A stretch of 64,000 nucleotides of DNA from Bilabrum cf. latius (lineage: Eukaryota), in the NCBI GenBank assembly GCA_965178125.1, contig OZ237745.1, positions 310,001 to 374,000 of the forward strand. The letters run 5' to 3'. Positions within the stretch are counted from its first letter, which is position 1; each line of letters opens with the position of its first letter. The notes below the pieces were generated by a model. That model worked only from the letters and a program-made list of their open reading frames with translations. It was not told the origin of the DNA and did no database searches. Position numbers and translations under genes: made by a program. Positions 3,584 to 36,539 of this stretch are shown here, piece after piece.

Positions 3584-6500
3584 TTACTAGTACTCTCTCG
3601 CTCTGCTGGAGCCCCCACCCCTCCCTGATCCTCCTCTACGTCGGTCCCAACTACTACTGCCGCTTTCGGCACCTCGACCACTTCTGCTTCGCCCCCGGCC
3701 TCCGCCACGAAAGGCACGCCGACCGCGCCCTCTACCACGGCCTGTTCCACTTGCAGCAGCATCGCTGGCGCCCTACACATGTTCATCTCCTGCCCCAGCG
3801 CCTCCGAGTCGACCCCTCCACCAGCTGGTTGACGGTCTGCTTGAGTGCTGGGCCCGAGGATTGCCTGCTCGGTCAATGGTAACATCCCGGTCCCCGCCTG
3901 TCCGCGCCTGTCCTGGCGATGCTTGACTGCTGTCCGAGCGCTACTGCGAAGAGCTGTGACCTGGCACCTGGTGGCTCGGGAGCATACTGTCCGTTGAGCT
4001 GTGACCTGGTACTTCGGTTGCTCTTGTCGCACCCGCAGGTTCTGACCTCGCACCAGCAACACTTGCACGGATCGAGCGGCTTCCCCGCCGGGATATCTGG
4101 CTGGACGCGCCCGCAAGAGCAGCTTTCCCCCACAGTGTCGTGGGTGCGGGCGCGGGCGCGGGCACGCGTGCAGGCGCTTGTACCCGCGCAGATGCAGATG
4201 CAGGCGCAGGCGCAGGCGCAGGCGCAGGCGTGGTGGGTGCCCGTGCATTGCTGTTTACCAGCACTGCGGTGCAGCCATCCGGGTGCTGGCTGGCGGCAGG
4301 CTCCGCAGCTTTTCTATTAGTGTCCTGCATAAACCTCGGATGCGATGATGACCTCCGACTTCGCCCAGATCCCAAAGCGCTAGGGGAGTCAGCGACAAGC
4401 TTCGGAACGCCAGCCAAGGAGCAAGCCGTGTCCACCACTGCCTCAGCCAACCGATCCATTCCCAGCGATAGCGCAATGAAGATGACGCGAAATGCGTTCA
4501 CGTGTTGCGTCAATCCTCGCTACGCTTTGTTCGGACTGCTCGATGGCGACAGCATGAATGCCGCAACCGAGTGAACGAGGGCATTTCGTAGCTGAAGCTC
4601 AGTGTTCTAGGAAGGAGAGTGGCCAGTCGACCACGACCTGCAGAGACGATCGCGACTGGATGCAGGGGCTGCAATCGGCGGGGGTCTCCAGCTTCCACCT
4701 GTACTGCCTGCACCTAAAGTGGTGTGTCTATCTCTCGGAGTGCTCGCGCCTGACTATCCCCTAGGTACCGGAGACGAAAGCGCTATGCCAGTCGAAGACG
4801 CCCGAGGTGCCGCTCGATGAGACGCTGGAGTCCCCGGAACAACGCCAGGAGAAAAGCCTGCCCGGGCAGCTCCGCCACCCGATGCCACCCCTTGTCTGTG
4901 TGCCTGCGACGAGTCTTCCGTTAGAGTACCCGAAAGGCCAGTCGAGTGCGTGGCAATCCTTAGAGTGGTAGGTGGTGCTAACCGCCGGGGGTCTGCAAGC
5001 ACGTGCTCCTTGAATGAATCCCGGAGCTGCAAAGCTAAATCCAGGTTGAAGTAGTCGTTTGGGTCCTTGACCAGCCACAGATGCGACTCCATGAGCGAGT
5101 CAGCAAACACCGCACTCACTACAGCTGCATTGTCGACACCAAACTCGCCCGTCTTGTGCAGTGCAATCTTGGCGTAGTGCACGTGTTTTCTTGCTCCTTT
5201 CTGGCTGATTTGGATCCTCACAATGCTCCTCACGGCCTTGCACATCATTGACTAGATCCGGGGCATGAGCCCGTCGTCGCCATCCGAGTCCTCGTGACCT
5301 CGGCTACCTTTCTCACGTTCAGTTTCTTTCTGCAGTGACGAATCAACGCGCCTTTCCCGCGGAGGTGTACTGGCGATTGCAATTGCACTGGGACTGCGTT
5401 CGCTCGATGCCTCTAGCAGATGATCGACATTTGGCGGAGGTTGGGATAGCAGACACTTGAGGCTCAGCGTCAGCTACGTATTGCGAGCCAGTGACTCCAG
5501 CATCCGCCGGGGGTCCTACAGGTGCATGAGAAGCAGCTTCCGGATGTCATCACGCCTACCAGCAAGCGCGTGCAGATGCTTGAATGATCTCTGCCTCATG
5601 GCAGCGTCGTCTCGGGATGCCTGCCGGGCCAGTTGATCGGGACTACTGCTCTGCCTGTGAGACTGGGCTTCGGGTGCTGCCTGTGCCTTGAGGCAGTACT
5701 TTGAGCGTGCAATCACCACTTGCGAGTCGCTTGCATTGAGCACCTCGGCGCCATTCAAGAGGTGCTCGGCATCCACAAGCAGGCCCCACTGAAGGCATTG
5801 CATAGCACACTGCGACAGCTTCTTCGTCTTGTCCAAGATCGACCTGTTCAAGAGATCGGGGTCCGTGCCAACGCCCATCACAAACGCAATGTTCTCCTAT
5901 CCGCCCTAGCTGGCCTGCACGAGCCGGCAGCTCTGCTACAGCATCAGAATATGCTGTCGGGACCAGGGGTCAAGGGAAGTGTCGCCTCCGCGGTACAGCA
6001 GGCTCTCAGGCAGGCAGCTCCGGCCGTGACCCCTGCTGGGTTGCCGAGCCAGTAAGACCGGCACCGACTACCCAACATACGCCTGCAGCGTGTGCAGCGG
6101 CAGTTCTGGCTTGTCCCACACCGGCGGTCCCCCATGTGCTTGCCGCAACCCGTTCTGCTTCCTTGGGTCGATGTTCCAAGACTGCAGCTGCGTGAGCCAC
6201 TCACCATACGCGTCTAGCAATGCTTGTTCCCCGGATCGAACGATCCATGCATTAGAGAAAAGTTTCTCGAACTTCTTCTGCATAGCGGATAGCTTGGCTG
6301 GCTACGCAGTTGACGTCATCCTTTTCTCCAAGCGGTAGTAGTTCTTCAAGGTAAGGCTGTGGGTAGGGTCTACTTGCAGTGCCTCCTTATAAATGGCCTT
6401 GCCCTTCGACAGATTGCTCCAGTTCCAGTCCTGCACGGGTCTCGGCGCCAAGTTCAGCTTGCCAATGTTGATTTGGTGGTGCATGTGCTGGTACAGGTTG

Positions 6501-9500
6501 GCCAGATCCTTCGCAATGCTCGAATGAATCGTCTCGCTGAGCCGGAGGGCGTTTCTGTAGTATGCCCGGGCGCGAATCATCATCGCAAAGGAGCGCGGGT
6601 AGTCCCAGATTGGTTCTCGATGCAGCTTCATCGCACGGTCAGCGAGATGCTTGCCAAAGTAGTAGTTGAGTCTTGCATGGGTAGGGTGCATGGCCAGCGC
6701 ATACTCGTACAGCAGCTGTGTCCCCTCCTTGGCCGACTGCGGCAAGATGGAGTCAAGCAGGAAGCACAGGTTGGAAAGGGCCTGGGCATCGCTGCCGCCC
6801 ATTGACAATGCCGTCTCGAAATCGCGGAAGGAGTCGCCTGCCAGACGCAACACCTCTGGTCCGACCTCTACCTGTTCAGCCTATTCGTCAGATTTCTTGT
6901 CCTTTGCGGTCTGTTTTGAGGCACCCTGCTTCGACGCAGCAGCTGATTTGCCTCCATCATGCCCCGACCCCTTGCTTCCAGCTGCGGATGCCTTGGTGTG
7001 CTTTCCGCTTGGCTGCGCTCGCACCTCCATTACCCGCCCACGCACGATGTCTCTCGCTTCCGGGTGCCCCGTTATATACTCCCTCAGCAGCTTGCGGCCC
7101 TTAAGCATGCTGTCCTTGTCATCATCTCGCTCGTGGATACTGGCGGCCTGCTGTCCCTTCTATCTCGCCTCCTGTTTCTCCAGGTTGCGTCGCTCCATGG
7201 CACGGATGCAGTTCACGGAGCCCTGGGTATAGTGCACCACAGGAGTGTACTTGATCTGGGGCTGAAGGGACTCCACGTACATGTATCCGAACGGATAGTT
7301 CTTGTCAAAGAAAGCTGGACCATGTCGCCGGATGTCGTTCAGCGCGCTCTGACTCAGCTTGATGCCGCAAAGGTCGCAGATGCGCTGCAGCAGGTACGGC
7401 TGCGGTAGCGACTGCCTTATCCACGCCGCAACGTTGGCAGCTGTTGCCATTTTAATCGCCTCATCCACGGCGGCCTGCTCTCTGGAGTCCTCGATGGCCT
7501 GCTCCGCATTAGTCGCGTCATCTTGTTCTTCGTCGCTGCTGCCGTTCACTTCAACCCCTACAGCACCCTCAGCACCACCCGCAGCACCCTTTACCTCGTC
7601 GAGAATGCCGCCGACGCTGGTCGATGAGTCCATCCGGGACGAGGACGGGGGCATCTCGCCATAGATCTACTCCACACCAGCGCCGTCCGTGCCCTCGGCA
7701 GCCACGCCATCAATCGTGACGGCACCGCCAAAGCCTGTGGCAACAACTTCGCCCGTGGTCTGAAGCATGTCTGAGCTGGCTGTGCTAGACTGCAATGGCG
7801 AGGACGTGCCTAACCCACGGCCTTTCGAGTCGGGATCTGGCCAGCCACTGCTAGAAGACTGCGACTCGACAGACTCTTCCCGCACCATGATTGGGGGACC
7901 ATTCGGAAAGCCGCTCAAGCTCAAGGGCGTGGAGGCTGTTGCTGCCGGGTTGCGGCTAGCAGAAACGGAGGTGGAGTCCACAGCAGCAGCCACAGGCCTG
8001 TCGAATTCCTAGCGCTGTCTGGCAGCAAGCCTTACCCCGCGCCTCGCTTCGTCCAAGTTTTTGCCCACCTGTGCCTTCGATTGGGAAGGCACGGGTGGTG
8101 GTCGCTTCGGCTGAATGAAGCTTCGGGCAAGCTCCTTCTTTCCAAGAGAAAACTTGTGGTCCATCAGCTCCAGGAGATCCTGACACCACAATGACGTCTG
8201 CGGCGAGCCCTGTGCAGGCTGATCCAGCCAAGCCCTCCCGAACACGTCGTTGAGGAACTGTTGGGCCACCTCTCTGTATGGCTCCACCAGCGGCACACTG
8301 GTGTGCTCTTCGTTACTGTCCCTGAGCCGCCGGTGGAACACTACCCTTAGACACCTAGACACCATCTCGAGCAGCAGACGTCGTCGGGCCACGTCGCAGT
8401 GCACGTCTCCATAGATCGCGCCCATGTGCCTCATGTTGGCGCCCTGGGAGTGGAGCAAGGCCTTGATGCTCCTGGGTCGGTACGCATGGCTTGCAGGTAC
8501 GAAGAAACTGCCTCCACTCGACCCAGATTCGAAGTCATCTTCGCCACCTTGCCACCCATTGCTCCCGTCTCTTCCCCCTTCGTCAGAGCCAGCGGCAGAG
8601 GATGACTGCCGAAGTACAGCGGCTGGATCCACCTCCTCGGCTCCAAACACATCCACCCTGACCTTTGGTTCACCCCAAGCGTACTTGCCCCTCTGGCCGC
8701 CCGATCCCACGTCCTTCGTGTAAAGAGACAGGCGTCCTGGGTACTCATGACTGTAAGAGGGGTGTGCCGTACTGAGTGTCTTGTGCAGCCTGCCTCTCAG
8801 GTAGGCTGGCACAAACACGCGAGTCTTCGGCTCCTCGCTCCAACCCGCACCAGGAGCGTCGATGCTCTTGCTGCCGCTCGAGCTGGACCCCCCAAGAAAT
8901 CCAGTGGCCTAGTCCATCGGATCGTCTACAGGCCGATGAGAACCTGTGCCGCCGTCTTGCAGCTCCCCGTCGCCGCTTTTAAAGGCCATGGCATACCAGT
9001 TCTCAAGCCTGAGGGGTCTCGGATTCGGCAGCTTGGCAGGTTTACCAAACGGATACGGTGACGTGTGGCTGGAGGGGCGGCCGGCTGTATTGCCCTTTTG
9101 CACGCTGCCAGAAGCTGTTGCAGCCACGGGGTCAAGCAAGGCCTGCATGTGGGTGCTGTTGGGTACCTCTGCACACTGGTCTTCAATTCCCACCCCAATG
9201 CTGTGCTGCTGCATGAGCGGCTGCGGGCCGGCATTATCACCGATGATGCCCTCCTCACTGCTCGCTGTGACCAGCCCTTCGACTGGCCCCGCATCATCCT
9301 CCGCCACGAACGGCCACACAGCCTCCCTGAATCCGCGCTGTTGAATGCAACTTTCCATGTATTCCCGTTTCTAGCCTCGCGCGCGGTTTGCGACGTGCTC
9401 AACGGCTGCGGCGTCTTTCACCGCCTCATCGTGGTCCTTCTGCCGGTCACGCTGGCGCAGCCGTGGATTGCGAGCAAACACGCTGCCATCTCCCACGCAA

Positions 9501-12500
9501 AGTCGCCATGCGGGGTGCTCACCGTGCGAGCCCGATCCCTGGCCTGCCGCGCTGCTGCTTGCAGTTGCATAACTCGCCGCGCTTGCTGCGGATGCATTGC
9601 TCTGCTGCCTCCCCATCCGGTTACGCTGCATGCGCTGCTTGGCCGCATCAGGGTCCAGCCAAGCCCTCTCACCTTCGAATCCGAGGGACTTAAGCTGCTC
9701 CTCAAACGGCGGCACCAGCGGCTTCACACCCGCCTTCTCCTCCCACTGCTGTCTGTCCGGCCTAGCCACCCGTGAAAGGCCATCAGGACCGACGATGCAC
9801 CCACAGGGGAGGACTGTAAAACGCTGCCAGCCTCCAAACCGAGGCTTTCTGGGTGCCGTAGCTTCCCAGGCCCCCTGCCAGTCTGCTGATGTCGTCGTTT
9901 CGTCCTAAGAGTCTGTTCTGGGGCCAATCCCGGGCGGGTAGATGCTGTTCATTCCCTGCTGGCTAAAGTAAACCTACGAGTCGCGGTTGGAGCCCATTGT
10001 AAACGACTGTGCCGACTGCAGCGCCCGCGAGGTCTCTGGCGCGGGTGCCAACTGGGGAACAGCCATATCCGGAGCCTAAATAGTCAGACCACCTTGCACC
10101 GGCAACGAGGTCGATTTTGTCGAGCTGGGGTGGATGGGCAGCCTGTTGCGAATCCCCGCCTGCAGTCGCTTTGAGGGAGGATTTGCAACAGAAGCTCTCC
10201 GCTTCGGATCCGCCAGTGCCTCCATGCCGGGAACAAGAGCCCCGCCACCCCTATCTCCGAACGCAACGCCCGTGCTGGTTGGTGTGGCTCCGGGCTGCGT
10301 TGTAGCGAGAGAGGGCAGGCCGCGGGCATCGGCAGCATGCTCTGCTGCAGGGGGTGCATTAAAGCCGCCTACCACTCCTAGGGTTGGCCCGTCCAGCACT
10401 GGCGTAGTTGGCTGAACGACGAACGCAGACGACGTGCCATCATCGTACGAGTACCCTGACCCCGCCCTGCCTCCTCCGGTAAAGTTCATCTCAGAGGCAA
10501 TGGCTGCACCATCCATGCCGTATCCGCCCGTCCTGCTGCCAGAGCTGGAGCCGCCACCCCGCAGGCCAAGAAGCTGCTTGATCGTGTCTCGCCTGACCAA
10601 AGGTGGGAGGGCACTCACCTCAACCGGTGTGCCGTCTGGGGCCAGCGTCGCGACCGTCCCTGAGGCAGGCAGCACCAGCGCAAAGTGGCCGAACCCTTTC
10701 CGCGACGCAGCCGACACTGCTAAAACATCGGCTGGTGAGATGTTCGAGATGAGTTCTTCTTCAGCGGCACAGATCAGGTCGATCTCCAAGGATTCTGGAT
10801 TAGATAGGGCTTGCGACATGGTGGAGTCTTGCCGACCGAGGGGCTGAGGGCCCAGCTCCTCTGTGTCTCCATCGTGATGGCGGTCATCGGCCGGCCCAAG
10901 TTCATGCGCTCCCGAATGTGTGTCAGGTCCTCCAGCGCCGCTGGCTGCTTGCAGGTTCGACGCAGCACCATGCACCTCCCCCCCATCCTCGTCCCCTTCT
11001 TCTTCATCGTCATCACTGCATGGCTCGCGACCAAAAAGCCCTGTGCCTCCAAAGCTGCCTCCCCATTGCTCGGATCCACCAGTAAGGCCAAGCTCATCGC
11101 TCGATGCGGCATCGGCATTGTCACCCTTGCCGCTAGAGCCGCGCCCTAGAGCCTCAGATGCCGTCGGGGAGTCTTCGTTGTTGCTGCCCGACCGACAGGT
11201 GTTGGAGCCGTCGTTGGTTCGGTATGTCTCAGTACTGTGTACCCGCACTAGGTTGGACGATCGAAGGTTGGCTCGGGAATCGTTGGGCTCTGGGGACACC
11301 CCTGGCGTCAGCTCCATCACGGGTGATGTGTCAACCAGCCTGGCCTTTGCTTCCTGCAGAAGCGCCCCAGGGGCCTTTCCGATGGCATCGTCGACTATCA
11401 CACCGGTCCCTTGAGGTCCAAAAATATCGACAACTTCTTTGTCCATGGCCTCGTTTGCGTGGCTACTCGGGTGGCTCCGGGCGTGCCGATCTCCCGCGCC
11501 GGCGCGGGCACCCTTTACCAACAACTGCCGAAGCCTGAACGTTGCACCAAATCTGCCGGTATCGGAGTACTTACCCAGGTCTCGGCCCTCCCACCTAGCA
11601 GGGTCCCAAGCTGTACCTGACACTGACCCGGCTCCCGACCTCGATCCAGACCCTGCGGTAGAGTCTGTGTCGTTGCGGCGCACAAATCGGGGTCCCACTC
11701 CAGCACCCTATCCGGACACAAAGAAAGGCGAGCTACCGTGCGTTGGGCTAGAGGCCTGCGTCACACCTGTACCCCAAGACACCCGGCTGTCGTCGCGGCC
11801 GACTGGGCCTGGCAGCCGAGGCGGCGGCTGCAGCCTGCCAGTCTTGGGCTGCTCTACAGTGCCTGCACCTGAGGATGCCGAGCTCATGTGCTGGGCACCT
11901 TTTGGAGGGGCATCGAACCTCCTGTGAACTGAACGAAGGTCATCCATGCCGTGCTGTGATGCAAGGTCTGCCCCATGCCGGCCATGCCGTGGGCCGAGCG
12001 TTTCGCTGTACGCCACGGCCCGGCGAACCCGAATGCCGTCGCACTCTCCAGAGAGCTCTCTAGCGAGCTACGGCAGGATGTCCTTCATCAGCTTATTGTG
12101 CAACTTTCTCACGTTCTGGTTGTGCCTGTCCGAATCTGGGCCCTACTGGAAATTGCTGAGGGCATCAGATGACAGCGGCTCGGGGCTCTGAGCCACCAGC
12201 TCTGGCCTCAACCGGCGAGTGAGGAGCCACTCGTTGCACTCGTCTCGACCCAAGCTGCGCGGGGCTGGCTCGGGCGGAAATACCCTGGCTACGTCGAGGC
12301 AATACAGCTGCTTCTGCTGGGGGTTGTAGTGGATCTCAATGTCACCAGGGCCCACCACCAGCTTGGAGAGGCGGCCGATCCTCCCATTCTGCAAGACGGG
12401 TCCACGCTGGATGTTCCCCGCCACTGGCTGCGGTGACGCCAGAACTTCCTTCGTCTGATCGTCAGTGAGGCCTACCTAGGCTGCGAGGTACCTGCCGTAC

Positions 12501-24900: not shown

Positions 24901-26874
24901 GTATGGGTACCATTTGGATCTAGCAACATCTGTTGCCGATGATACACGATAGTACAGGGGGAAGGCTGAGTACTCGTATAAGGTAGCAACCGGTAGCGGT
25001 GCCGCTGCCGGGTAGCTGACCCGGATGGACCTGCAAACAGCAGCTGTTGCGTCAAAGGCAATGGACAAAAACTTGAATGGGGGCCTTCTAGCGGTGGATA
25101 ACTACTTTAAATCGGCTCCACTGTGTGATTGGGCCACCAGCAAAGGCCTTCGGGTTGTTGGCACGCTTCGCCAAGGCAAAGTGAGCGGTGAGCTGTACCA
25201 CGCGATTGGCAAGCTGAACAGACGAACCCCAGGCGAACGCGGGCAGGCTGTGAAGCGCGCTCCTCCTGGGTCCAGCAAAGTCTCTTCATGTCATGTAATA
25301 GCTGATGATGTTTTTGATGCGAGTGAGCTTCCTGCGGGATCGCTGCTGGCCGAAGAGGACCTTGGCAGTCGGGGCCTGTTGAGCCCTGGCCAGACAGTAG
25401 CCTTTGACTCGCCAGTTGATTCAGCTTCTGGGATGCAAGTTTTTGGATACTGTGACCGCGCATCATTTCTTATGGCTTCTAACATTCCTACGAAGTACTT
25501 TGTTCGGTTGGTAAAGAAGCTACGGAAAGATGGTGGCGAACTGAGTGTGGTGAACGCGCCCCTCGTGTCCGTCCTCTACAACAAGTACATGGGGGGTGTG
25601 CATCTAGCTGACAAGTTCCGGACGCAACTTTCGCTAACAAATGCATTCCAGGGAAAGAATAGGGCATACTTAAGAGTGTGGGAAGGTTTAATGGAGCAAG
25701 TTATCGTCAATACGTACATCATCTGGGTCAACTTGGAGGCACGTCGACTGCTACGCCACGGACCCAGTCGTCGGCAAGCTGCTGGAGCTAGCAACGAATC
25801 CGTTCAGGAACAGGTTTAGCACATGGTGCTGCATCGACAAGCTCATGTTATGTTTGTGCAGCTGTTGTATGACGAATTGATGCGTCCTTACCGACATGCA
25901 CGTGCAGGAACTCGCGGTGCTGCAACCTCAGCTGGGATGCGTGCGGAGGCGACCCCCGGGAACCTTGGATGTAGAAAGCAGCACACGGTAGCTACGCTGC
26001 TGGGCTCGCTCCATTTGATTGGAAAGGAGTAGTTGCAAGCAGGACTGATTAAATTTCTCAGTAGCGGACGATCAAAGAACCGTCGAGTGGGGTGCAGCGC
26101 CAAGTGCAAGGACTCCAGATGCAGCAAGCGGCAGCATCATTAGTCAGTTTCTTCCTATAAAGTGTGTTCACGCTGCTGCAAGTTCATTTGTGGGGATTGT
26201 AAAGAATCTATGTATCATCTGGAAACAGGATTTGGCTGTGATGTGGATATAGTTGATATTAATGCCAAGTAAATGGATGCGCAAGAATCGGGTCACGAAG
26301 CACGTCATTCATGGCAGGTCCACATTCGATTCAATATCTTGTAAACCGTTCGGTAACTTTTTCGCGCTAAGACTTATATATAATATAACTACCAATTAAT
26401 TCAAAAAAGCTTGTTTATTTCTCAAGCATGCCTGCTTGGACAAACTTCTGCAGTATCAAAGTAGCCCTTCCTGAAAATCGAGCGTATGGTTTCATGACCA
26501 CCAAGTATACTATTCTCGCAAGCTCATCAATGAGTAACTCTCGCAATCGATAGTTAACTTATACAATTTTCAATATTTTGATATTATTTTAGGATTACTT
26601 GAATGGTACGCGAGAATCGGTAAGGTGAACTCATGGTACCGATATCGGCGATACCGGTCGGTCGGCCAAATCCGACCTTTCACGGCGCCGGGTACCCTCC
26701 TTGCACTGGCACGATCTTGTTTCCGTAGCTGTAATCGATCGGAGTCGTGTTGATATCGTAGACCCTCAAGTCGGCGAACCATCGGGTCTCGGAAGTGGGC
26801 AACGTGTAGTCGATCCGTGTTAGGGATTCGCCGTTAATGCACGGAATAAGCGCGATTGCCGCGAGAAGCGCCAT
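18916..26874 (-). CDS. Type I cell-surface protein (signal peptide, beta-propeller-like region, P/S/T linker, Cys-rich module, SEA-like domain, TM helix), interrupted by a transposon at 22796-26691
   Basis: N-terminus MALLAAIALIPCING at 26874 rejoins in frame (QGGY|YLTINIP) after removing the element plus one GTAC (3,900 bp). Downstream ORFs share the frame, broken only by TAG, and end TGA 18916. Motifs LLVGDLLPGTGG / ISDINPGTGG, TCLDGETSGSESDIDCG..C..C, TM VGVIVTIVVLVWAVAAAAGYYF, ETDAKG repeats in the tail. Confidence 0.75.
22796..26691 (+). mobile_element. piggyBac-like DNA transposon, 3,896 bp, 18-bp perfect TIRs, GTAC target-site duplication
   Basis: ccggcgccgtgaaaggtc (22796-22813) is the exact reverse complement of 26674-26691; GTAC flanks both sides (22792-22795, 26692-26695); AT-richer interior carrying a piggyBac-type transposase. 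Confidence 0.9.
23733..26272 (+). pseudogene. Degenerate piggyBac-family (PGBD-like) transposase
   Basis: Motifs SIAVDEMMV, MPNKPTSHGFKLW, AVDNYF, GTLR, YNKYMGGVHLAD and a C-terminal Cys-rich domain ending TAA 26270-26272. Apparent frameshift near 24450-24470, in-frame TAA at 24530, and the third catalytic Asp (GGVD) replaced by His. 5' end approximate. Confidence 0.8.
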
Positions 26875-27354
26875 CACAGATGCTCAACTCTTTTGACTCA
26901 AGCTTCGCGTTGCTATATGAATCTGTATCAGCGGCCGGCAGGCTTCATGATAGATGCGCGCTACTTTCCGACTTTAGGCGTAAGGTTCGTTCGTTCGATC
27001 GTTCGTTTGAGAACAATCACAAACTATAAGAGCTCCCCCGACACGTGTCACGGGTGATGCGCAGGACCACTCAAGGATCCTCGACTTATATCTTGAAGAG
27101 ATCGAGGAGGGCTGCAGCGAAGGCCAAACGGGCGCTCGTCAGGGCGGTTTGGGACGACTTTGCCAGCCCGGCTGTTGGGGCAGCCGGAAAAGAACAACCT
27201 CGCCACGGCGGTCGCCAATGTCAAGGCAGGGTTGGACCGGAACGGGCAGTAGGACGGGGTGCCGGCAGCGGGCACCGGAGGGAACGTGAACGCTGACGCT
27301 CCCCAGGGGCAGAAGGGTCCTCAGGATGGAGCTTTGGTGGTTTAGGCCATTGCA

Positions 27355-27436
27355 GCTGAAGTGTGATGCCTAGTAGGTCCTGGGCCTTCGTTCCAGATGT
27401 GGTTTTGCGGTAGCGTGCCATTTTGAGTTGAACACA
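27355..27436. repeat. Dispersed repeat A, copy 2
   Basis: Similar to 3460-3535. Confidence 0.65.
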
Positions 27437-28040
27437 ATATATGGGTCAGACTGGCCGGACGAGAGCGCACTACAGATACGACGAAGAGAGAGCGGAACAG
27501 CAACAGGAAGCCACAGATGTGGCACCTGCAGGTGTAGTGGCACATGCCGCAGCACTCGCAGCAGTCGTTGAACAGGCCGAATCTGAAGAAGCCGACCAGC
27601 AGCAGAGAGAAATGCCGGTTGCACTCAATCCGCAGAGCACAGCCCAAGGTGGAGCGGCAGCAGCTGCTGGTCCTGGTGTAGCACCTCCTCAAGAGATCGA
27701 GCCAAAGGATCTAGTAGGTCCAGCTGCACCACAACCTCACCACAGCGGGGTATATGTGTTGCTGGATCATCCTGCCGATCAAAAAAGGTCAGAGTGCTCC
27801 ACCTCGCTCTCTTGTCGCATACGGCTGTCGCGCCGCATCCGACTTTTCTGTATCTGCCGATCCTTCCGATGACGGCATTCGGATAGGGGATTGTAGCCTC
27901 TTCTAGACTACCCTCCATCCTATCCCGAACCCCTCCGGGCCCCACCGCCCCCTGTCCACATTCCTGCCCTGTCTGCGCCTCCCGCTTCATCCACCCCGTC
28001 CACTTTGTCCACTTTTCCTCTATTTTCCCCACCCGGCTTC

Positions 28041-28138
28041 TCCTTCACCTCAGTCACGCCACACGACTTGTCGATTCGCCCGAGCGCTGTGCCCAGCGCG
28101 CGACCTAAGACTTAGAGGTGGAAGCCCCTCACACACAA
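28041..28138. repeat. Dispersed repeat B, copy 1 (inverted relative to copy 2)
   Basis: Reverse complement matches 39855-39951 (ttgtgtgtgaggggcttccac..ctaag..aggtcgcgcgctgggcacagcgct..gcga.tcgacaagtcgtgtggc); weaker purine-rich similarity extends beyond. Confidence 0.8.
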
Positions 28139-28363
28139 GAGATTCAGGTTGGACGAAGGTCCGGTGCGAGATCTCGAAGGCGGCGATTCTGAGCCCATTT
28201 AGACCCATGACTATGCTGTTACCCGGAGCTTTCCCGGAACGTTCTTGATCGACCGGAGCTTGAGGCATAATCTCGAATCAACTGCACCAAAGGGCAACCA
28301 CAATAAAACAGCGCAAGGAGATTGTGAATAGGATCGATTTCCAGTAGATTTGCATTGTGCATA

Positions 28364-31300
28364 ATGTAGGTAAGAAGATGGTATGATTTCGATCTGCAAT
28401 TACTGGTAGTACTGCTCGATTTCTGGAGCACTCAGTATCTCCGCAACTAGCTATGAGCAGCCCATGTATGCGATTGATACTGTGATTATTTTTCGCAGAC
28501 CACCCGGATATCGTATGATGATAGTAGTTGGAAGCCATCTGAGCTCCCACTGCAAGGCTTCTGGCCGTAGATGTGGGCAATGCTGCGTCTTGCAGTTCTG
28601 CGAAAGCTCCGCGCACCGGCAGCTACCTTGGTTTCGACAGTGTTTCCCGTCATTATCTTCCTGGGGATATCCGCGTCCATGAATTTTTAGTTTCCAGAGT
28701 AGACTGAGGAAGAATCTGTCCCTTTGAGCACTGAATCGCACTGGGCTGCGGCCGCTGTAGCCCAAGCGGTTGGTTCAGCACTCAACAGGTCGGCAGCCGA
28801 CCAGAGTTTCAGGATCACCGACAGCGAAGCCATGCTGGCAGCCCTACATCCTCTAGTAGGAGTTTTTGACCAAACTGTTACCTCCGGCAGTACTCCTGTG
28901 GATCCAGGCATGCAGGGCATACTGTCCTCCAGCCTCTTCCCCGCCCTGCCCGCCGGCGCATCACTGGGTGCTCTCTCGAGGAATGTCGGTGGCATCGGCC
29001 AAGACTTTGAGAGGGCATTCAACCAGTCTTTACAGCTGCAGCAAGCAGGCCAGGACTCCCTACCGTTTGGCTCTCTCTCTTCGCCCCCCTACAAGTGGCC
29101 CGGACCCGATGGCTCCCCCATCGTGCTGGTCGCACCCATGACAGACAGGAAGGACATCGCGCGACTCGCGCCGGGGTCCGCAGCGACGCATCCAGATCCA
29201 GACGGGTATCAGCCTTCATCAGCTGCAAGCGGGTCAGGCGATGCAGGAAGCTCCCTCAGTGATGCTCAGCTTGCCGCACTGCAGGCAGCCTCGAGGAGAT
29301 GTGCTGCCACCGTGGCACAGGCACTGGGTGCCAGTGTGGATCGCGCGAGAGCAAGCCGGGATGCGGCTCTCGAGTAGTGCCAGCAAGCGATGGCTACGGG
29401 TGGTGCTGCTCCAAGTGGCGAATGCTCGGCAGTCTTTCGGTCTCAGCCACTGCCCCGCGGCCCAGACACGGTCGTTCTTGTGGGTAGCCTACCTGCGGCC
29501 CGTGACATGGCAGAAGGACTCAAGACCATTCGAGGCAGACTGCTGAGAGAAGGCGCTGTGCTGACCATTGTAGGAGTGGGTCCTTGCAGCGGCGGGGCAC
29601 TGCTTGCTGGCCCGTCTTCCGTGGGCAACCTAAGCTTGGTTGTCAACGCGTCGGTCGACACTGACAGCCTGCCAACTGGGGGCCAATGCCCCAATTCAAT
29701 TCGGGAGAGTGCTGGATCAGGTATTAGCTCCAGTGACGACGAATATATGCGAGTGGAGAGTGCCTGCTGGCCAACTAGTCCCGAGGCAGCCGCAGATCTT
29801 GCTCTAGCAAAACATGCCGGTATGTCGCCTGCAGAGGCTGATTCCATGCGATACGCTACCAGTATGGCTTGGAATGCTATCGGTGGGAACGATACACACG
29901 CACTTGTAAACACCACGCGAGCAGTGCACTCGCTGTGCTCAGGAAACAGCAGCGCGTGGAGCCAGCAGAAGGCAGACATCTGCAGCTCGTTGGTGCAGAG
30001 CCTTGCGTCACAGGAGACCGGGCATGCATCCACCTCTGACGGTATCCAGCAGAGCACAGCGGCAGCCCCCATGCTACCCATCCGTCTGTATATCAACGAG
30101 TCCTTTGGGTATTCGCTTGATCTGACGAGCATCGCCGACCGGCCAGACGCGCGGCTGCCTGAGCTAGACTGGAAGCAGCAGCAAGGAACACGGCAGTTTG
30201 CTGCTTCATACACGACCGGGGCCTTGCAGGTCCTTCAATGGATCGGCAGTGAGCATTTCCGAGCAATAACTCGTTGGGTCACTGCTGGCAGTGGTGGAGA
30301 TGCAAGTGCCAGGGCACAGCGACTGTTTGATGCTGTGCAGCCACACAAGGTCATGGACGGCCTTGATGGGGCAAGTTCGATCGGCTTTGTTCGGATGCCA
30401 TCTGTAATGCAAGGATCTGGCGGATCCAAAGACCTGTACGAGCCTCCACAATCGATGGAGATATCTCTAGGACTACCCTTTGCCTTTGCGATTTAGGCCT
30501 TCCTTGTGTCCCTGATCATAAGCCTCGCGAAAGAGGCAAGCGAGGGGCACCGTGATCACTTAGCAGTGTTGGGGCTATCATCGTCTGCGTATCACTTTAG
30601 CTGGCTGGTTGTCAGTCTCTTGCATGGGCTGCTCCCGGCTGCGCTCTGTGCAGGAGGTGCCATGCTGACCAACGTTGTGGGCGGAGCCGGTTTCTTCCTT
30701 ATTTTCGTGCTGTTCGCGTGCTTCGTGTTCGCCGGGTTGGCATTCAACGCCTTCCTGATCACGGCACTGCAGAAGACGGCAAACCCACAGGCAGTCGGCC
30801 CGGCACTTGGCCTGCTGCCAATCTTCTTCATCGGGGTGTGGGCCGCCATCGTGCAGCTGACTGATGGCCCCGTTGCGAGAACGATCGTGTCCGTGCTGCT
30901 TCCCTATGGCGGGGTCTTCTCGGGCATGTACATTTTCGTGATCATTCCCGAGTCCGAGGGCGGAAGAGCACCCACCTGGGGGGATTTCTGGAGCTACGAT
31001 GAAGGCGAGACTCTGCTGGGATATGCCGTGGTGAGCATGCTCGCCAGCGGGGTGTTGTATACGGCTGGGTCGCTCATTATCAGCCACTTCTGGTACGTGG
31101 CCAATGTATCCCCGGAGGTGAATACCGCCAGCAGCGCCTCGTCTGATGGTGGTGCCACCGGTAAGGCCCTGCTTGGCCGCGACGACGCGCTGTTTGAAGC
31201 TGTACCGCGCTCTCAAGACAAAGACTGCTTGCGGGTGAAAGGACTGTCGAAGGCCTACAGCGCGGGCGGAACACCATGGGTGCTCTCTAGCGCAGCAAAT

Positions 31301-34300
31301 GGAGCGGCTCGAGCCATCGGATCCAGCGCCCAATTTGGATCCATGAGCGAGCAGCACCTGAGCCAGGCGCAGCGCGATGCCCTGAAGCGATTTTGCGACG
31401 GAACAGTGACCGATGCAGAGGTGAGGCAGTTCAATGATGCGCTGCATGCGTCTCAGCTGGGACTCGGGGACTGCTTTGGCGAATACTCGAACCGGAAGCT
31501 CGCCGTGGCTGGTGTGGATTTACAGCTGCGACGCGGCGAGATCACTGCACTGCTGGGGCACAACGGGAGCGGCAAGACCACCACATAGAAGATCATCACA
31601 GGCCAGCTGCCTCCCACTGCAGGTGAGATCAGCTATTTTGGCGTGCGCATGTCTGCATAGAATGCTAGTCAGATCCGAAGGGAGCTCGGCGTGTGTCCTC
31701 AGCAAAACGTGGTGTTCGACGAGATGACCGCAGCTGAGCACCTGCAGTTCATTGCCGAGATCAAGGGGCCCGAATGGGTCGTACGGGCAGACCCGAAGGT
31801 GAAACAAGCGCAGAAGGCCGTCCGAGAAGGCACGGCGGGACACTCCACCGGTGGAGAGAATGCTCATCAGGCCCTGCAAAAGGCCATCCAAGAGGCCCTG
31901 GAGAAAGAAATCGAGCACAGGCTGCACCAAGTCACCTTATCAGATCGTGATGACGGCTACACGAAGCTGGTGGGCACTTTTAGCGGCGGGATGAAACGGA
32001 AGCTGTGCATCGCCATGGCGCTGCTCGGTGGTCCCGAGGTGCTGACCATCGATGAGGGCACGAGCGGAGTGGATCCTGCCAGCAAGCGCAAGCTGTGGGA
32101 CCTGCTGCTTCGCGAGAAGCATGGCCGCGTGGTGTTGATCACCACGCATGCCATGGATGAGGCGGAGCAGATCAGCAACCGTGTGACGATCATGAGACGC
32201 GGTAGGCTGTTTGCGGAGGGTAAGCCGTTGTTCCTTCGCGTGAACCCCAAGTTCTCCGAGGGCTTCACGCTGTCTGTGAGACTGCCTAAGCTGGACGGTG
32301 CCGGCAAGGTGGGAGGACCTGGCGAGAGGCACGCAGGCGCTGCAACTAGCCGTGACAGCGCGGTGGGTGCCCGATTTAAGAATGTGGACGAGTTGTCAAG
32401 CATGGGCTGGTCGTAGTTAGACCGTGCTGTCCGAAGAGCGCTGCCATCGGCACGTCCTGTAGAGCGTTCGAAGTCGGGTGCTACTGCGTCTATGTCCTCT
32501 TAGAAGGGCTCTTCTAGAGACTACGTGCTTCCTTTCGAGGACAAAGCTGAATTCCCGGCTCTGTTCAGCATGCTGGAGAAGTCGATTCAGACCTCAAGTG
32601 GAGGAACTTCTTCGTCCAGCCTCACCTGCATTGATGGGTCGAACGAACTGGTGCTTCCCGCAGGCACTGACCTGCGCCTGCAGCACACCACCCTGGAGCA
32701 AGTATTCGTTCGAGTCTCGGAGATGTCAGAGGTGCCACACATCAACGATGACGGTGGCAAAGGTGATGCGGCACATCGGGGTACATATACAGCGAGCCGG
32801 TCTGCCAATGGTATTGCACCAGCCCCACCATCCGGCTCAATGACAGAGTCCCAGGTTGCACCCTCTTCCCTGGACCAGCCAAACCACGGCTTCGACAGCA
32901 AGCCAGCAGCTGGCTGGAGCAAAGAGCAGCATGAGGTCGTTGAACAGGCAGGCATGAGCTCATCAGGCGACAGCCACTCACCAGTGCTCAGGCACATCAA
33001 GGCCAACCTGAATCGAACCAGGCAGTACCAGGCGATGCTGTACATCAGGTACCTGAAGTACACGACTCAGTTCGAGCTGATGTTTTGGATCGTGCTGTTC
33101 CCATCGCTGATGCTGATAAGTGGGATTCTCATGATGTGGCTGCTCAACAGCCCCGGCCAAGAGCCAACGACGATCACCATCGACCCGTTCTAGGCACATG
33201 GCGGCGCTGGGTCTGGTGTGCTGCTGGCTCCAGTGGGGACAAGTCTAGGACAGCAGAGCGAGCTGTCATTGGACACCACCAGGGATCTGGTCGCGTGGTA
33301 CAGCCAGTCGGGACAGCCAACGGAGGAGGGCCTGCTTGGGAACGTCTCTGCAAGTGGCTTGGAGGAGCTGCAGCGCTATGCACGCGGAGCTGAGTCTGCG
33401 GCAATCGACCCTTTGCTTCTCCGGCCCGAAGAAGGGCTTGCCCCATTCTCCGCCATGCTCTCGGCATGCGGGCTACTCGGGCTGACTGGCCGGGGAGTCG
33501 GGACTGGAGACACGTCTACTTTCGCTGCATCGGCTGCAGGAATCGGTTTGCCCTCCTGGGGCTGCCAGGCCCTGGCCCTGCAGCTGTCGCTTGCCGGCGA
33601 GTGGAATGATGTGACGACCCCGGCTGCAAATGTCACTGCAAGAGGAGCGTCTGCGGGCAGCTGGCTCCAGGTGATCAACCAGGACACCGTGGATGAGACA
33701 GGCACTCAGCAGCAGCCCATGCTGGCGATGGTCCCAAGCGCCGACAAGGTACTGCTGAATTCTGCAATCCGATTCACGTTGAGCTCACCTCTGCGCCCAG
33801 GCAACCTGACAGAGGACAACGCTTCCCAGCTGCAGCCGTTCGGCCTGAGCCTCGATGCACCCGCGAGGCTCGGTACAGGCATCATGTGGGACGGCAACAG
33901 CTCTGATATAAATGTTTGGGATCGCCAGCGCGCACTTGCCTTCAACGCATCTTTGCCATTCGTTCTGTTTGCTGCAGTGCTTGCCGAACACCACGCGGCG
34001 GTATCGATTGCGCTGGGTGCGTTTCAGCAGCACGGGATGCGGCTGGAGATCGCCCAGGAGGAGCAGGTGTTCGACTTAAGCTCGCTTCAGAGCTTCGTCA
34101 TCCCGCTTCTGATCGGCGGCGCTTTCACGAGTCTGCTGCAATCGGGCGCGTTTTTGCTTGTAGCAGACCAGGAGAAAGGGATCATTCAGAAACTGAAGTC
34201 ACTCGGGCTGGACGGCACGTCGTATTGGACAGGCCTTTACCTCGGCGACTTGCTGCAAACCCTCCCAGCCATAGTTGTGCTGGTCATTAGCATTCTCGCA

Positions 34301-36229
34301 TTTGACCTCAGTGTGCTTGGCGGGCCCAAGCTGCTTGGCTTGGTGGTGCTGCTGGTGCTTTACAGCATCTCTGTGTCATCCCTTTTCTACCTCATGGTGA
34401 CCTTCATCCCGAAGCAAGAGATTGCGGGTGGAGTCATCCCGATCGTGAATCTCGTGTTCGGGCTGGGTCTCTTCTCTGCGTTCCAGCTGCTCGCTGGTGA
34501 AGATGCTGATACTGAGCTGCTTGACACGATCGCCGATTCTCTGCTGTGGATGCCGATATTCGGATTTTACCGCGGTGTGGAGGTGCTGGTGTCTTTGGAC
34601 GACTCCGTGCGATCGCTTGGTACCTTGGACCCGACAGTGGCGCATGTGTTCCGTTGGGACATTGGTCTTGCCAAGGTGATCGTTGGTCAGATATGCGCGG
34701 CACTGGCTTGTGCCTTGGCATTGGTGGTCGTGTGGAACTGGGAGATGATCCATGCCTCCAACGATCGCTCGCGGGTTGCTGAGGTGGTCAACTGGGTGAG
34801 AACTGCCGGCGACAAGCAACAAGAGGCTGCGGAGAGCTCGGCAGCGATCGAGCGAATCAAGAAGGACAAGGGAACCATTGCAATCCAAGACGCCTGGCGG
34901 GTTGTGCAGTCAGGCGAGGAGTCCGCCCATGACGAGTCCACCTCGACAAGGCCTGCAGCTGGGGCCGCCCGTGACTCGAACGGAATCCAAGGTCCGCAGT
35001 TGGGGTCGCACGACAAGGTGATTTTGCAGGGATGCAACCTAGCGGTAAAGCGAGGAGAAGCTGTCAGCGTGGTGGGGCCTTCTGGTGCAGGCAAGACCAC
35101 CATGATCAACCTGCTCAGCGGCTAGGGACACCCGCAAGCAGGCGAGGCCTGGATCGATGGGGCGCCCGTGGGGTCGGAGTCCAACCGCGGCAGCCTCGGG
35201 ATGTGCCCGCAGGACGATCCATTGTACAACACGGTGACTCCTCGCCAGCACTTCCACATCTTTGCCATGATCAAGGGGATGCCCACTGAGGAGGTGGAGG
35301 CAACAATCGAGGCCCTTGCCAAGCCCATCGATCTAGAGCAGCACCTGGACACTCCCGCAGATCAGCTGTCCGGGGGCAACAAGAGGAAGCTGGGCCTGGC
35401 GTCGGCGTTATTTGGCCTACCGCCGGCGATCGTGGCCGACGAGGTGTCGACAGGGGTGGATCCAGGAGCGCGCAGGGGCATCTGGGGGCTGATCGCTCGG
35501 TGCAGGCAGGGCTCCAGCATGGTGTGGTCGACCCACTCCATGGAGGAGGCTGAGGCCACGGGAGACCGCGTGCTGATCATGGCCAAGGGGAAGACGCTGG
35601 CCCTTGATACCCCTCAGAGGCTGGTGCAAACGCTGGGTCGCGGCCTGCTTGTGGATGTGGAGGTAGCCGAGCAAACTGCGGCTAGCTCGGGCTAGTCGAC
35701 TGGTAGCTCGGGTGCAGCTGGCGCGGATGGTAGAGCTACAGATTCCCTAGGGGACGAATCCTTGTCGCAAGCGGAGAAGGGGCACGGTGCCGTGGCACTC
35801 GCAGGGCAGCCGGGGGGTGGTGGTCCTCGCACCGCCAACATGACGCAGCGTGTAGATGACGTTCTGTCCGAAATACGCAGGCGAGTCGAGCAGCTTACAC
35901 CACCACGGATGGAAGAGCATATGTCAAATGGGTCTGCGAGGGATGGCGCCGGGTCGAACGGCAGCCCTCCCAGCGGTGCGTCCTGGCAGGTTGAGGTGCT
36001 GGAGAGGACTGGCGGATCCCTGCGTCTGCTGATCCAGGGCAAGCATGCTCAACCGGATGGAGCGAGTGCATCAGGGCATGAACAGTCACTTTGCTCCGAT
36101 ACAATACCGCTCTCGGCGGCCTTTGATCTCTTGCTGCGGGTGCAGCAGAGCCAACCTGCCGTGACGCATTTCTCGATCGGACAGCCAACGCTTGAGCAGG
36201 TGTTCTTGCGGCTGGTCAAGGAGGAATGA
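28364..36229 (+). CDS. Full-size ABCA-subfamily transporter, copy 1 (~2,578 aa; exons 28364-28369 and 28499-36229)
   Basis: All fragments 28724-36229 share one frame, broken only by TAG; ends TGA. TMD-NBD-TMD-NBD with GHNGSGKTT, GVCPQ, FSGGMKRKL, IDEGTSGVD, TTHAMDEAE, TTLEQVF; GPSGAGKTT, GMCPQ, LSGGNKRKL, ADEVSTGVD, STHSMEEAE, QPTLEQVFL. The 6-nt first exon plus GTAAGA donor is mirrored in copy 2. Confidence 0.9.
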
Positions 36230-36539
36230 ATGTACCTTTGGAGCGCGGCCTTGCTAGATCTACTACTCATCAGGATCCGTGGATGCGGTTCTGCCCGTGC
36301 CTTGTCTATTATCGCATGGGATTGCGCCGTGCCGCTACATGGAGTAGCCATCTCGAATTCGATACTTGGGATTCGACAGAGGACGATCTAGCGTATGGAA
36401 GCCACATGTGCATTCTAAGTTTAAATCAAATCAAACTTGGTCGCGGGAGCCAAGGGATTGACATGAATCAGCCCAATGCTCTCCACAGCCGCAGCGGTTA
36501 TGAACCTGCAAGGTGCACCTGGCTGCAACTGTACCGCGC

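Follow-up and report, generated by a model that had tools for sequence, protein, structure and literature searches.

The question raised by the stretch of Bilabrum cf. latius DNA analyzed here is what the codon TAG means in its genes. The stretch, hereafter the window, comprises 64,000 nucleotides (nt) of contig OZ237745.1 (positions 310,001 to 374,000), and positions are counted from its first letter. The question is sharpest in two ABCA gene copies, A and B, which both carry an in-frame TAG close to the N-terminus of the encoded protein. An earlier reading made from the sequence alone (the sequence-only reading) had favored Gln for UAG and had left Glu or ambiguous decoding possible from the window by itself. 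The substitution rates measured here showed that the window cannot decide between these meanings, and sequences from outside it shifted the balance to Gln. We consider it likely that Gln is the main, and probably the sole, meaning of UAG. The features discussed are collected in Table 1.

The G+C content of the 64-kb window was approximately 58%, and a scan of its open reading frames (ORFs) showed that very long ORFs open when TAG is read through. In nine long ORFs of up to 3780 codons, TAG accounted for 107 of 14,967 codons, all of them internal. Internal TAA or TGA was absent from the same nine ORFs, which terminated with TGA (six) or TAA (three). In this window, all 22 ORFs of at least 300 codons that were open apart from TAG ended with TGA or TAA or left the window. 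The Pfam domains ABC_tran, ABC2_membrane_3, CLU, MACPF and FG-GAP spanned the in-frame TAGs. Because the 107 internal TAGs were found in ORFs without internal TAA or TGA, the use of TAG as a sense codon is beyond chance. Thus, TAG specifies an amino acid in this organism, and termination is left to TAA and TGA. The ratio of TAG to CAG in the nine ORFs was 107:482, compared with 207:551 for TTG to CTG, indicating that TAG was relatively rarer; its low share relative to CAG fits a young or mildly disfavored codon. TAG was among the last two codons in 2 of the 13 ORF ends examined. The ORF of the CLU (clustered mitochondria) homologue ended with TAC TAG TAA (3584-3592), and an ORF of 1863 codons ended with TAG AGT TGA, followed by TCC TGA (56770-56781). 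These terminal-region TAGs may be former stops that are now read through to nearby back-up stops.

Public sequencing runs were mapped on positions 22000-41999. Three runs from two studies (X4, X5 and X7) gave spliced contigs and were taken as RNA from their splicing, not from the run records; run X1 was DNA. A contig of X4, 7946 nt in length, covered 28497-36388 with 0 differing letters, and a second contig, from the neighboring MACPF transcript, likewise covered 36408-39469 with 0 differing letters. The spliced contigs were without six GT-AG introns (87-129 nt) that X1 retained, and all 12 TAGs of ABCA copy A were unchanged in them. Since the spliced contigs matched the genomic TAGs letter for letter, there is no editing, and the mature mRNA carries UAG.

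Next to the splicing data stands the N-terminal TAG of the ABCA genes. As the sequence-only reading had stated, both copies read G(F/C)WP-TAG-MWAMLRL, and the coordinates and codons matched the sequence. Both copies lack an in-frame ATG on the stretch from the last stop to this TAG; their first ATG lies directly 3′ of it. A spliced mini-exon resolved this point. In copy A, one contig each of X4, X5 and X7 joined 28367 to 28497 with 129 nt skipped (GT..AG, cut +2), and X1 gave no such joint. The acceptor, TTTTTCGCAG|ACC, continues the reading frame, with ACC at 28499, and the protein model of copy A reads M-TAG-TTRISYDDSSWKPSELPLQGFWP-TAG-MWAML. Copy B has a similar layout, ATG ATA|GTAAGAG (56027-56020), with the acceptor TCTCGCAG|GTC TAG at 55913/55912; its intron is predicted by analogy with copy A. 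A TCGCAG acceptor lies at equal distance from the shared part in both copies, exactly 30 nt upstream of the start of similarity. Because the upstream mini-exon supplies an ATG in frame, the N-terminal TAG of ABCA is coding. The alternative that it belongs to a 5′ untranslated region, with translation starting at the following ATG, was ruled out because splicing provides copy A with an ATG in frame and copy B is laid out alike. Two further observations concern these 5′ ends. The second codon of copy A is itself TAG (28364-28369), which under the standard code would make a minimal ATG-stop upstream ORF, and copy B has ATG ATA at the equivalent of this ATG TAG. Moreover, the similarity between the two copies begins abruptly, approximately 45 nt upstream of the N-terminal TAG.

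The ABCA homologues share the pattern M-x-F-x-x-Q-L-x-L-L-L-W-K-N, in agreement with the human ABCA1 N-terminus quoted in the sequence-only reading, and a MAFFT alignment placed the TAG in the Q column, where the conserved Gln marks the beginning of transmembrane domain 1. The earlier argument for Gln at this position holds, but only because the mini-exon provides the ATG. The equivalent residue in the second half of the transporter, in RQYQAML, had been said to use CAG, and this was confirmed in both copies (33023 in A, 51394 in B). Alignment to solved ABCA structures was limited to the ATP-binding domains and part of the membrane domains. A metagenome scan with a TAG-free ABCA piece of 1040 amino acids found 80 loci, all with 29-35% identity over the ATP-binding domain, and no relative among them. 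The ESM Atlas matches were generic ABCA clusters.

Close relatives were represented by public gene calls made under a standard-type code, giving 11 distinct fragments with 59-99% identity. Six of these fragments ended exactly before a TAG of our sequence (CLU 572, 1852, 2875 and 3469; ABCA 1572/1596 and 2406). Two ended before a CAG (CLU 316 and 1026, the latter end being seen on two contigs), and one each ended before AAG, GAA (P0069) and GCG, these three being uncertain as they may be contig ends or poor alignment. Six exact ends cannot be chance because TAG makes up only approximately 1% of the codons; we infer from them that the relatives have TAG in frame at matching positions. Where the relatives read through a TAG site (15 sites), they showed Q at eight, E at three, and R, K, M and H at one each, and one relative added R at site 1313 of copy A. 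W, Y, L, S and D were not observed at the relatives' read-through TAG sites. The same relative alignments (2115 positions) were used for calibration. Canonical Q sites (n = 99) were aligned with Q 85, R 6, P 3, K 2, D 1, H 1, G 1 and E 0, and canonical E sites (n = 102) with E 83, D 5, K 3 and Q 1. The changes from Q to R, P, K or H at canonical Q sites involved partners similar to those at TAG sites. Were TAG to mean Glu, the 3.2-fold advantage of transitions measured at four-fold sites would still raise the expectation to only approximately one Q; eight were seen, a number hard to reach under Glu.

Deeper homologues gave a second, more distant view. We aligned 65 ABCA and 146 CLU homologues, clustered local redundancy, and scored seven informative TAG columns (Table 1) with a pseudocount of 3. 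The summed log2 odds were highest for Q (+1.48, best of the 20 residues), followed by T (+0.67) and M (−0.87). E reached −5.11, placing Q 6.6 bits above E, and the sums for L, S, Y, W and K were −8.8, −3.2, −18.3, −17.7 and −4.1 bits, respectively.

The paralogue pairs within the window were analyzed from codon alignments. The two ABCA copies gave 2580 aligned codons with 90% amino-acid identity, in which TAG faced TAG at eight sites, CAG at two and GAG at two, so that 8 of the 12 copy A sites are common to both. The sequence-only reading had listed TAG opposite CAG at three sites (31586/52826, 32414/52001 and 16270/16941) and opposite GAG at three others (30494/53918, 31658/52754 and 15376/18067), and the codons at all six were as listed. 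The last pair of each group comes from two MACPF genes, in which ERY-TAG-VFD (16270-16272, minus strand) faces SKY-CAG-IYD (16941, plus strand) and SPP-TAG-LLN (15376-15378, minus strand) faces SPP-GAG-LEE (18067, plus strand). The ABCA genes form a convergent inverted duplication with 227 synonymous and 243 non-synonymous codon differences, and in all four of their TAG/sense differences TAG is in copy A.

The ABCA pair also provided the rates. Among 1364 four-fold sites there were 91 transitions and 57 transversions, a per-path transition/transversion ratio of 3.2; the first position of Leu codons differed by C/T at 10 of 174, and two Q/E pairs were found among approximately 126 Q sites. Calibrated on Leu CTG/TTG (10/174), the expected numbers of CAG/TAG and GAG/TAG pairs were approximately 2.7 and 1.1 if TAG is Gln, and approximately 3.4 and 2.3 if it is Glu; two of each were observed. 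The 2:2 split (3:3 overall) is thus about equally likely under Gln and Glu, and is evidence neither for nor against Glu. The paralogue Q:E ratio was accordingly dropped as a discriminator. An apparent excess of Glu when counted per TAG site (6 of ~45, against 2 of 352 at CAG/CAA) was also rejected, since most TAG/GAG pairs have their source in the GAG pool, ~9-fold the size of the TAG pool. In the ABCA pair, GAG/TAG and GAG/CAG pairs were equally frequent (two each), as the Gln reading predicts. TAG trinucleotides in the wrong frames of the ABCA pair (n = 21) served as a rough control, being counted by hand and overlapping real codons. They faced CAG nine times, TGG three times, AAG and Leu codons twice each, GAG once, and Tyr, Met, Ile and Ser codons once each. 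W, Y, L and S faced in-frame TAG in none of the 22 changed comparisons. As these residues were present in the wrong-frame control, selection therefore keeps TAG sites Gln-like or Glu-like.

Outside the window, the Q at 8 of the 15 relative sites, the two relative ORFs that end at CAG, and the first rank of Gln over the seven columns move the balance further to Gln. Several results weigh against this assignment. E occurred at 3 of the 15 relative TAG sites and at 0 of 99 canonical Gln sites, which is above the level of a plain Gln codon unless gains from the GAG pool are counted. Altogether, Glu faced TAG in six comparisons, three in paralogues (30494, 31658 and 15376) and three in relatives (CLU 236, CLU 481 and ABCA 2216). 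At ABCA 2216, the column contained D 36, E 8, G 2, I 2, M 1 and Q 0 of 49, and the relative P0069 has E. In addition, the deep-column sum depends on the pseudocount and on three strongly informative columns, of which two favor Q and one favors E/D. Finally, a classifier of neighbor composition using two residues on either side gave the TAG sites a log-likelihood ratio of −3.7, compared with +5.3 ± 4.1 for held-out Q and −6.2 ± 4.1 for held-out E. However, this classifier was rejected because its answer shifts with the number of neighbors, being nearer E at two residues on either side and nearer Q at eight, with a separation of only 1-3 standard deviations. As for position 2216, its equivalent in the first ATP-binding domain of copy A is Gln encoded by CAG (ITGQLPPTAG versus LLSG-TAG-GHPQAG), indicating that Gln is tolerated at this type of position.

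The alternatives of mixed Gln/Glu decoding, pure Glu, and other meanings each appear improbable. The first would have UAG read stochastically as Gln and Glu, by one tRNA charged by both synthetases or by two tRNA(CUA) species, with TAG confined to sites accepting either residue. Only Q and E recurred opposite TAG (11 and 6 of the 22 changed comparisons), W, Y, L and S being absent though equally near by mutation, and TAG occurred both in a Q-conserved column (the ABCA N-terminus) and in a D/E-conserved one (2216). The anticodons for Gln and Glu differ only at position 36, a difference that is lost in CUA. A stochastic codon also has a precedent in CUG of Ascoidea asiatica (PMC6041473). However, once TAGs gained from CAG and GAG, both large pools, are taken into account, the numbers of E and Q show no clear departure from plain Gln. 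The equal numbers of GAG/TAG and GAG/CAG in the ABCA pair and the Gln at the first-domain equivalent of 2216 likewise speak against mixing, within this small sample. We regard mixed decoding as unlikely, although it survives best among the alternatives.

Almost as well, but still as an unlikely reading, survives the proposal that UAG is Glu through a tRNA-Glu(CUA), with the Gln opposite TAG reflecting frequent E-to-Q changes by the fast T-to-C transition. Such a meaning agrees with the three TAG/GAG paralogue pairs, with E in the relatives at CLU 236, CLU 481 and ABCA 2216, with the D/E column at 2216, and with the classifier at two residues; the likelihood of the ABCA pair is approximately equal to that under Gln. 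Nevertheless, Q was found at 8 of 15 sites in the relatives, where the rate at which canonical E faces Q (1 of 102), even with the transition advantage added, leads to an expectation of approximately one. Relative ORFs stopped at CAG of our sequence twice and at GAG never, the single end at GAA (P0069) being uncertain. Over the seven columns, E scored −5.1 bits against +1.5 for Q and was favored in only one, and it did not occur in the ABCA N-terminal column (0 of 40) or in CLU 217 (0 of 22).

A further proposal is that TAG stands for a different residue (Leu, Ser, Tyr, Lys or Trp), that near-cognate tRNAs read it with more than one outcome, or that it is still a stop in some genes. PMC11687900 describes UAG as Leu in the rhizarian exLh and in one ciliate lineage and as Ser in Scotinosphaera. 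Thr was second in the deep-column sum (+0.67), and the ends of CLU and of the 1863-codon ORF suggest that some TAGs may be old stops. The own codons of any such residue should, however, be the commonest partners of TAG, and TTG, TCG, TAC/TAT and TGG were found in 0 of the 22 changed comparisons and AAG in one. L, S, Y, W and K were all negative over the deep columns, and we consider these meanings very unlikely. An unchanged code, with the TAGs explained by RNA editing, pseudogenes or assembly errors, can be practically dismissed, as nothing was found in its favor, the spliced contigs of three runs keep the TAGs, ORFs interrupted by nothing but TAG reach 3780 codons, and TAG sites are common to relatives and, in 8 of 12 cases, to paralogues.

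For the favored Gln reading, we propose that a dedicated tRNA with the anticodon CUA, charged by glutaminyl-tRNA synthetase, would read UAG. C34 of this tRNA would pair with G only, so that UAA would remain a stop, and eRF1 would have ceased to recognize UAG. The Glu residues found opposite TAG would then represent ordinary E-to-Q change, arising by one G-to-T substitution in the abundant GAG codons. The same reasoning, a tRNA(CUA) that does not read UAA and an eRF1 blind to UAG, is given for Iotanema spirale (PMC5304391). ARAGORN and Rfam searches found no tRNA genes or other RNA genes in the window, and the eRF1 gene lies outside it.

NCBI translation table 15, in which TAG is Gln and TAA and TGA are stops, would translate the ORFs as proposed; such a table does not denote a lineage, and the assignment to Blepharisma for which it was first made is doubtful. 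UAR is Glu in peritrichs and in Blastocrithidia. By its sequence features, the code of this organism seems best filed with the known codes in which UAG is Gln and UAA is kept as a stop, as a further case. According to PMC11687900 and PMC5304391, such codes are used by Iotanema spirale, Protocruzia tuzeti and two phyllopharyngean ciliate lineages. The fornicate Iotanema is similar in that only UAG was reassigned, UAA and UGA being stops (PMC5304391; PMC11687900). There, too, Gln was deduced from conserved alignment positions with canonical Gln as the control, and tRNA-Gln(CUA) and an altered eRF1 were predicted only. In contrast, the Iotanema assignment drew on a transcriptome and hundreds of alignments, and ours on one window, seven deep columns and the relatives; here the evidence is genomic, at ~58% G+C and with GT-AG introns of 87-129 nt. 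Protocruzia and the two phyllopharyngeans share the codon and the inferred residue, with independent origins (PMC11687900). They are ciliates, however, whereas the window is without ciliate signs, consisting of large multi-gene DNA with high G+C and ordinary introns.

The oligohymenophorean ciliate PL0344, in which UAG is Glu and UAA is Lys (PMC10553269; PMC11687900), is similar in that UAG has its own meaning. It differs in that UAA is a stop here (3 of the 9 long ORFs) and that Q, not E, predominates. The rhizarian exLh (UAG is Leu) and Scotinosphaera (UAG is Ser) resemble our case as UAG-only changes in non-ciliates (PMC11687900); in our data, by contrast, Leu and Ser scored −8.8 and −3.2 bits and no TTG or TCG partner was found. 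Ascoidea asiatica CUG (Ser/Leu) is the only natural precedent for mixed decoding in the material drawn on (PMC6041473). In that case, a sense-to-sense codon is concerned and two competing tRNAs were shown, unlike here. Our literature search found no description fitting such an organism, although an earlier description is possible.

Table 1. Positions in the window of the genes, introns and TAG codons discussed, and composition of the seven deep TAG columns (cluster-weighted counts; scores in log2 odds).
Feature	Positions	Strand	Details
ABCA copy A ORF	28478-36229	+	12 TAGs
ABCA copy A main exon to TGA	28499..36229	+	12 in-frame TAGs; two ABC_tran domains, ABC2_membrane_3
Copy A exon 1 end	28364..28369	+	ATG at 28364, TAG at 28367; ...ATA ATG TAG|GTAAGA; in-frame TGA upstream at 28325-28327
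Copy A GT-AG intron, 129 nt	28370..28498	+	Absent from contigs of X4, X5 and X7, kept in DNA run X1
N-terminal TAG, copy A	28568..28570	+	Codon 26 of the spliced model; CAA GGC TTC TGG CCG TAG ATG TGG GCA ATG CTG
TAG (A) opposite GAG (B)	30494..30496, 31658-31660	+	
TAG (A) opposite CAG (B)	31586..31588, 32414-32416	+	
CAG (Gln) of RQYQAML, second transmembrane half	33023..33025	+	Aligned to the same column as the N-terminal TAG
TAG at ABCA residue 2216	35123..35125	+	LLSG-TAG-GHPQAGEA, second ATP-binding domain
ABCA copy B ORF	48188-56011	-	9 TAGs
ABCA copy B main exon to TGA	48188..55912	-	8 TAGs common with copy A and a TAG as the second codon of the exon (55909-55907)
N-terminal TAG, copy B	55841..55843	-	Equivalent of copy A TAG; CAA GGC TGC TGG CCG TAG ATG TGG GCA ATG CTG
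Copy B predicted GT-AG intron, 109 nt	55913..56021	-	Preceded by ATG ATA (56027-56022)
CLU (clustered mitochondria) homologue	3584..14926	-	3780 codons, 37 in-frame TAGs
MACPF-domain gene	15187..16518	-	TAGs at 16270-16272 and 15376-15378; plus-strand paralogue (~16560-18258) has CAG and GAG there
ORF with Asp/Arg-hydroxylase domain			1863 codons, 17 TAGs
MACPF, FG-GAP and piggyBac-like ORFs, and others			Named from Pfam domains
ABCA N-terminus column			20 clusters from 40 homologues with a residue; Q 9.5, K 3.5, T 3, E 0; Q +3.4, E −2.9
ABCA 1037 column			Hydrophobic
ABCA 1061 column			S/T/N
ABCA 2216 column			15 clusters; D 5.6, E 5.4, Q 0
CLU 217 column			13 clusters; Q 3, T 2.2, L 2, M 2, E 0 (0/22); Q +2.3, E −2.4
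CLU 928 column			Mixed
CLU 953 column			105 clusters; E 19, R 13, N 13, A 12, Q 12

Other features of the window were also recorded. Five further GT-AG introns, absent only from the spliced contigs, were found at 38773-39277 on the minus strand upstream of the MACPF ORF (99, 90 and 87 nt) and at 41621-41976 on the plus strand (124 and 128 nt), and the introns cluster near the 5′ ends of long, otherwise single-exon genes. The convergent transcripts of ABCA copy A and the neighboring MACPF gene end 20 nt apart (36388 and 36408). The two divergent MACPF paralogues near the CLU gene (15090-15330, minus strand; 18040-18258, plus strand) are approximately 58% identical overall, with their last 26 codons, the stop and the next nine bases identical, and these identical 3′ ends suggest recent gene conversion. 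The 5′ half of the plus-strand copy shifts frame, pointing to introns or decay. The CLU homologue, which was the source of most comparisons with relatives, is approximately three times the usual length. Its conserved N-terminal core consists of two blocks (approximately residues 180-412 and 845-960) split by low-complexity inserts that are common to close relatives. In the FG-GAP ORF, residue 536 (43497-43499) is a TAG where three other repeats of calcium-binding type have Gly (GDIDGDG, GDVDGDG and SDFDGDG versus GDINGD-TAG); this is uninformative on Q versus E and an odd place for either.

A piggyBac-like transposase ORF (DDE_Tnp_1_7; 24533-26272) with six TAGs lies within 23650-26270. Over this interval, X1 contigs had a depth of ~200-230, compared with ~29-36 for flanking single-copy contigs, and 13-18 differences per contig; because of this raised depth and these differences, the element is multi-copy. 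The three runs with spliced contigs showed almost no depth over it. At 26669-27335, the summed depth was 1042 in X1 and 154 in X5, and several loose contig ends fell at 26695; these values probably mark a short element with very many repeats. No solved-structure match was found for the piggyBac-like ORF or for the MACPF ORF of 761 amino acids.

Nuclear reassignment of UAG only is known from no more than a handful of lineages (PMC11687900; PMC5304391). For gene prediction, the standard code breaks proteins of such an organism at every TAG, as seen in the public calls of the relatives (6 of 11 fragments). The relatives with common TAG positions, together with the existing transcripts, make tRNA(CUA), eRF1 and the gain and loss of TAG directly testable. 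One more such lineage, with its GC-rich genome and ordinary introns, would mean that the change arose independently once more.

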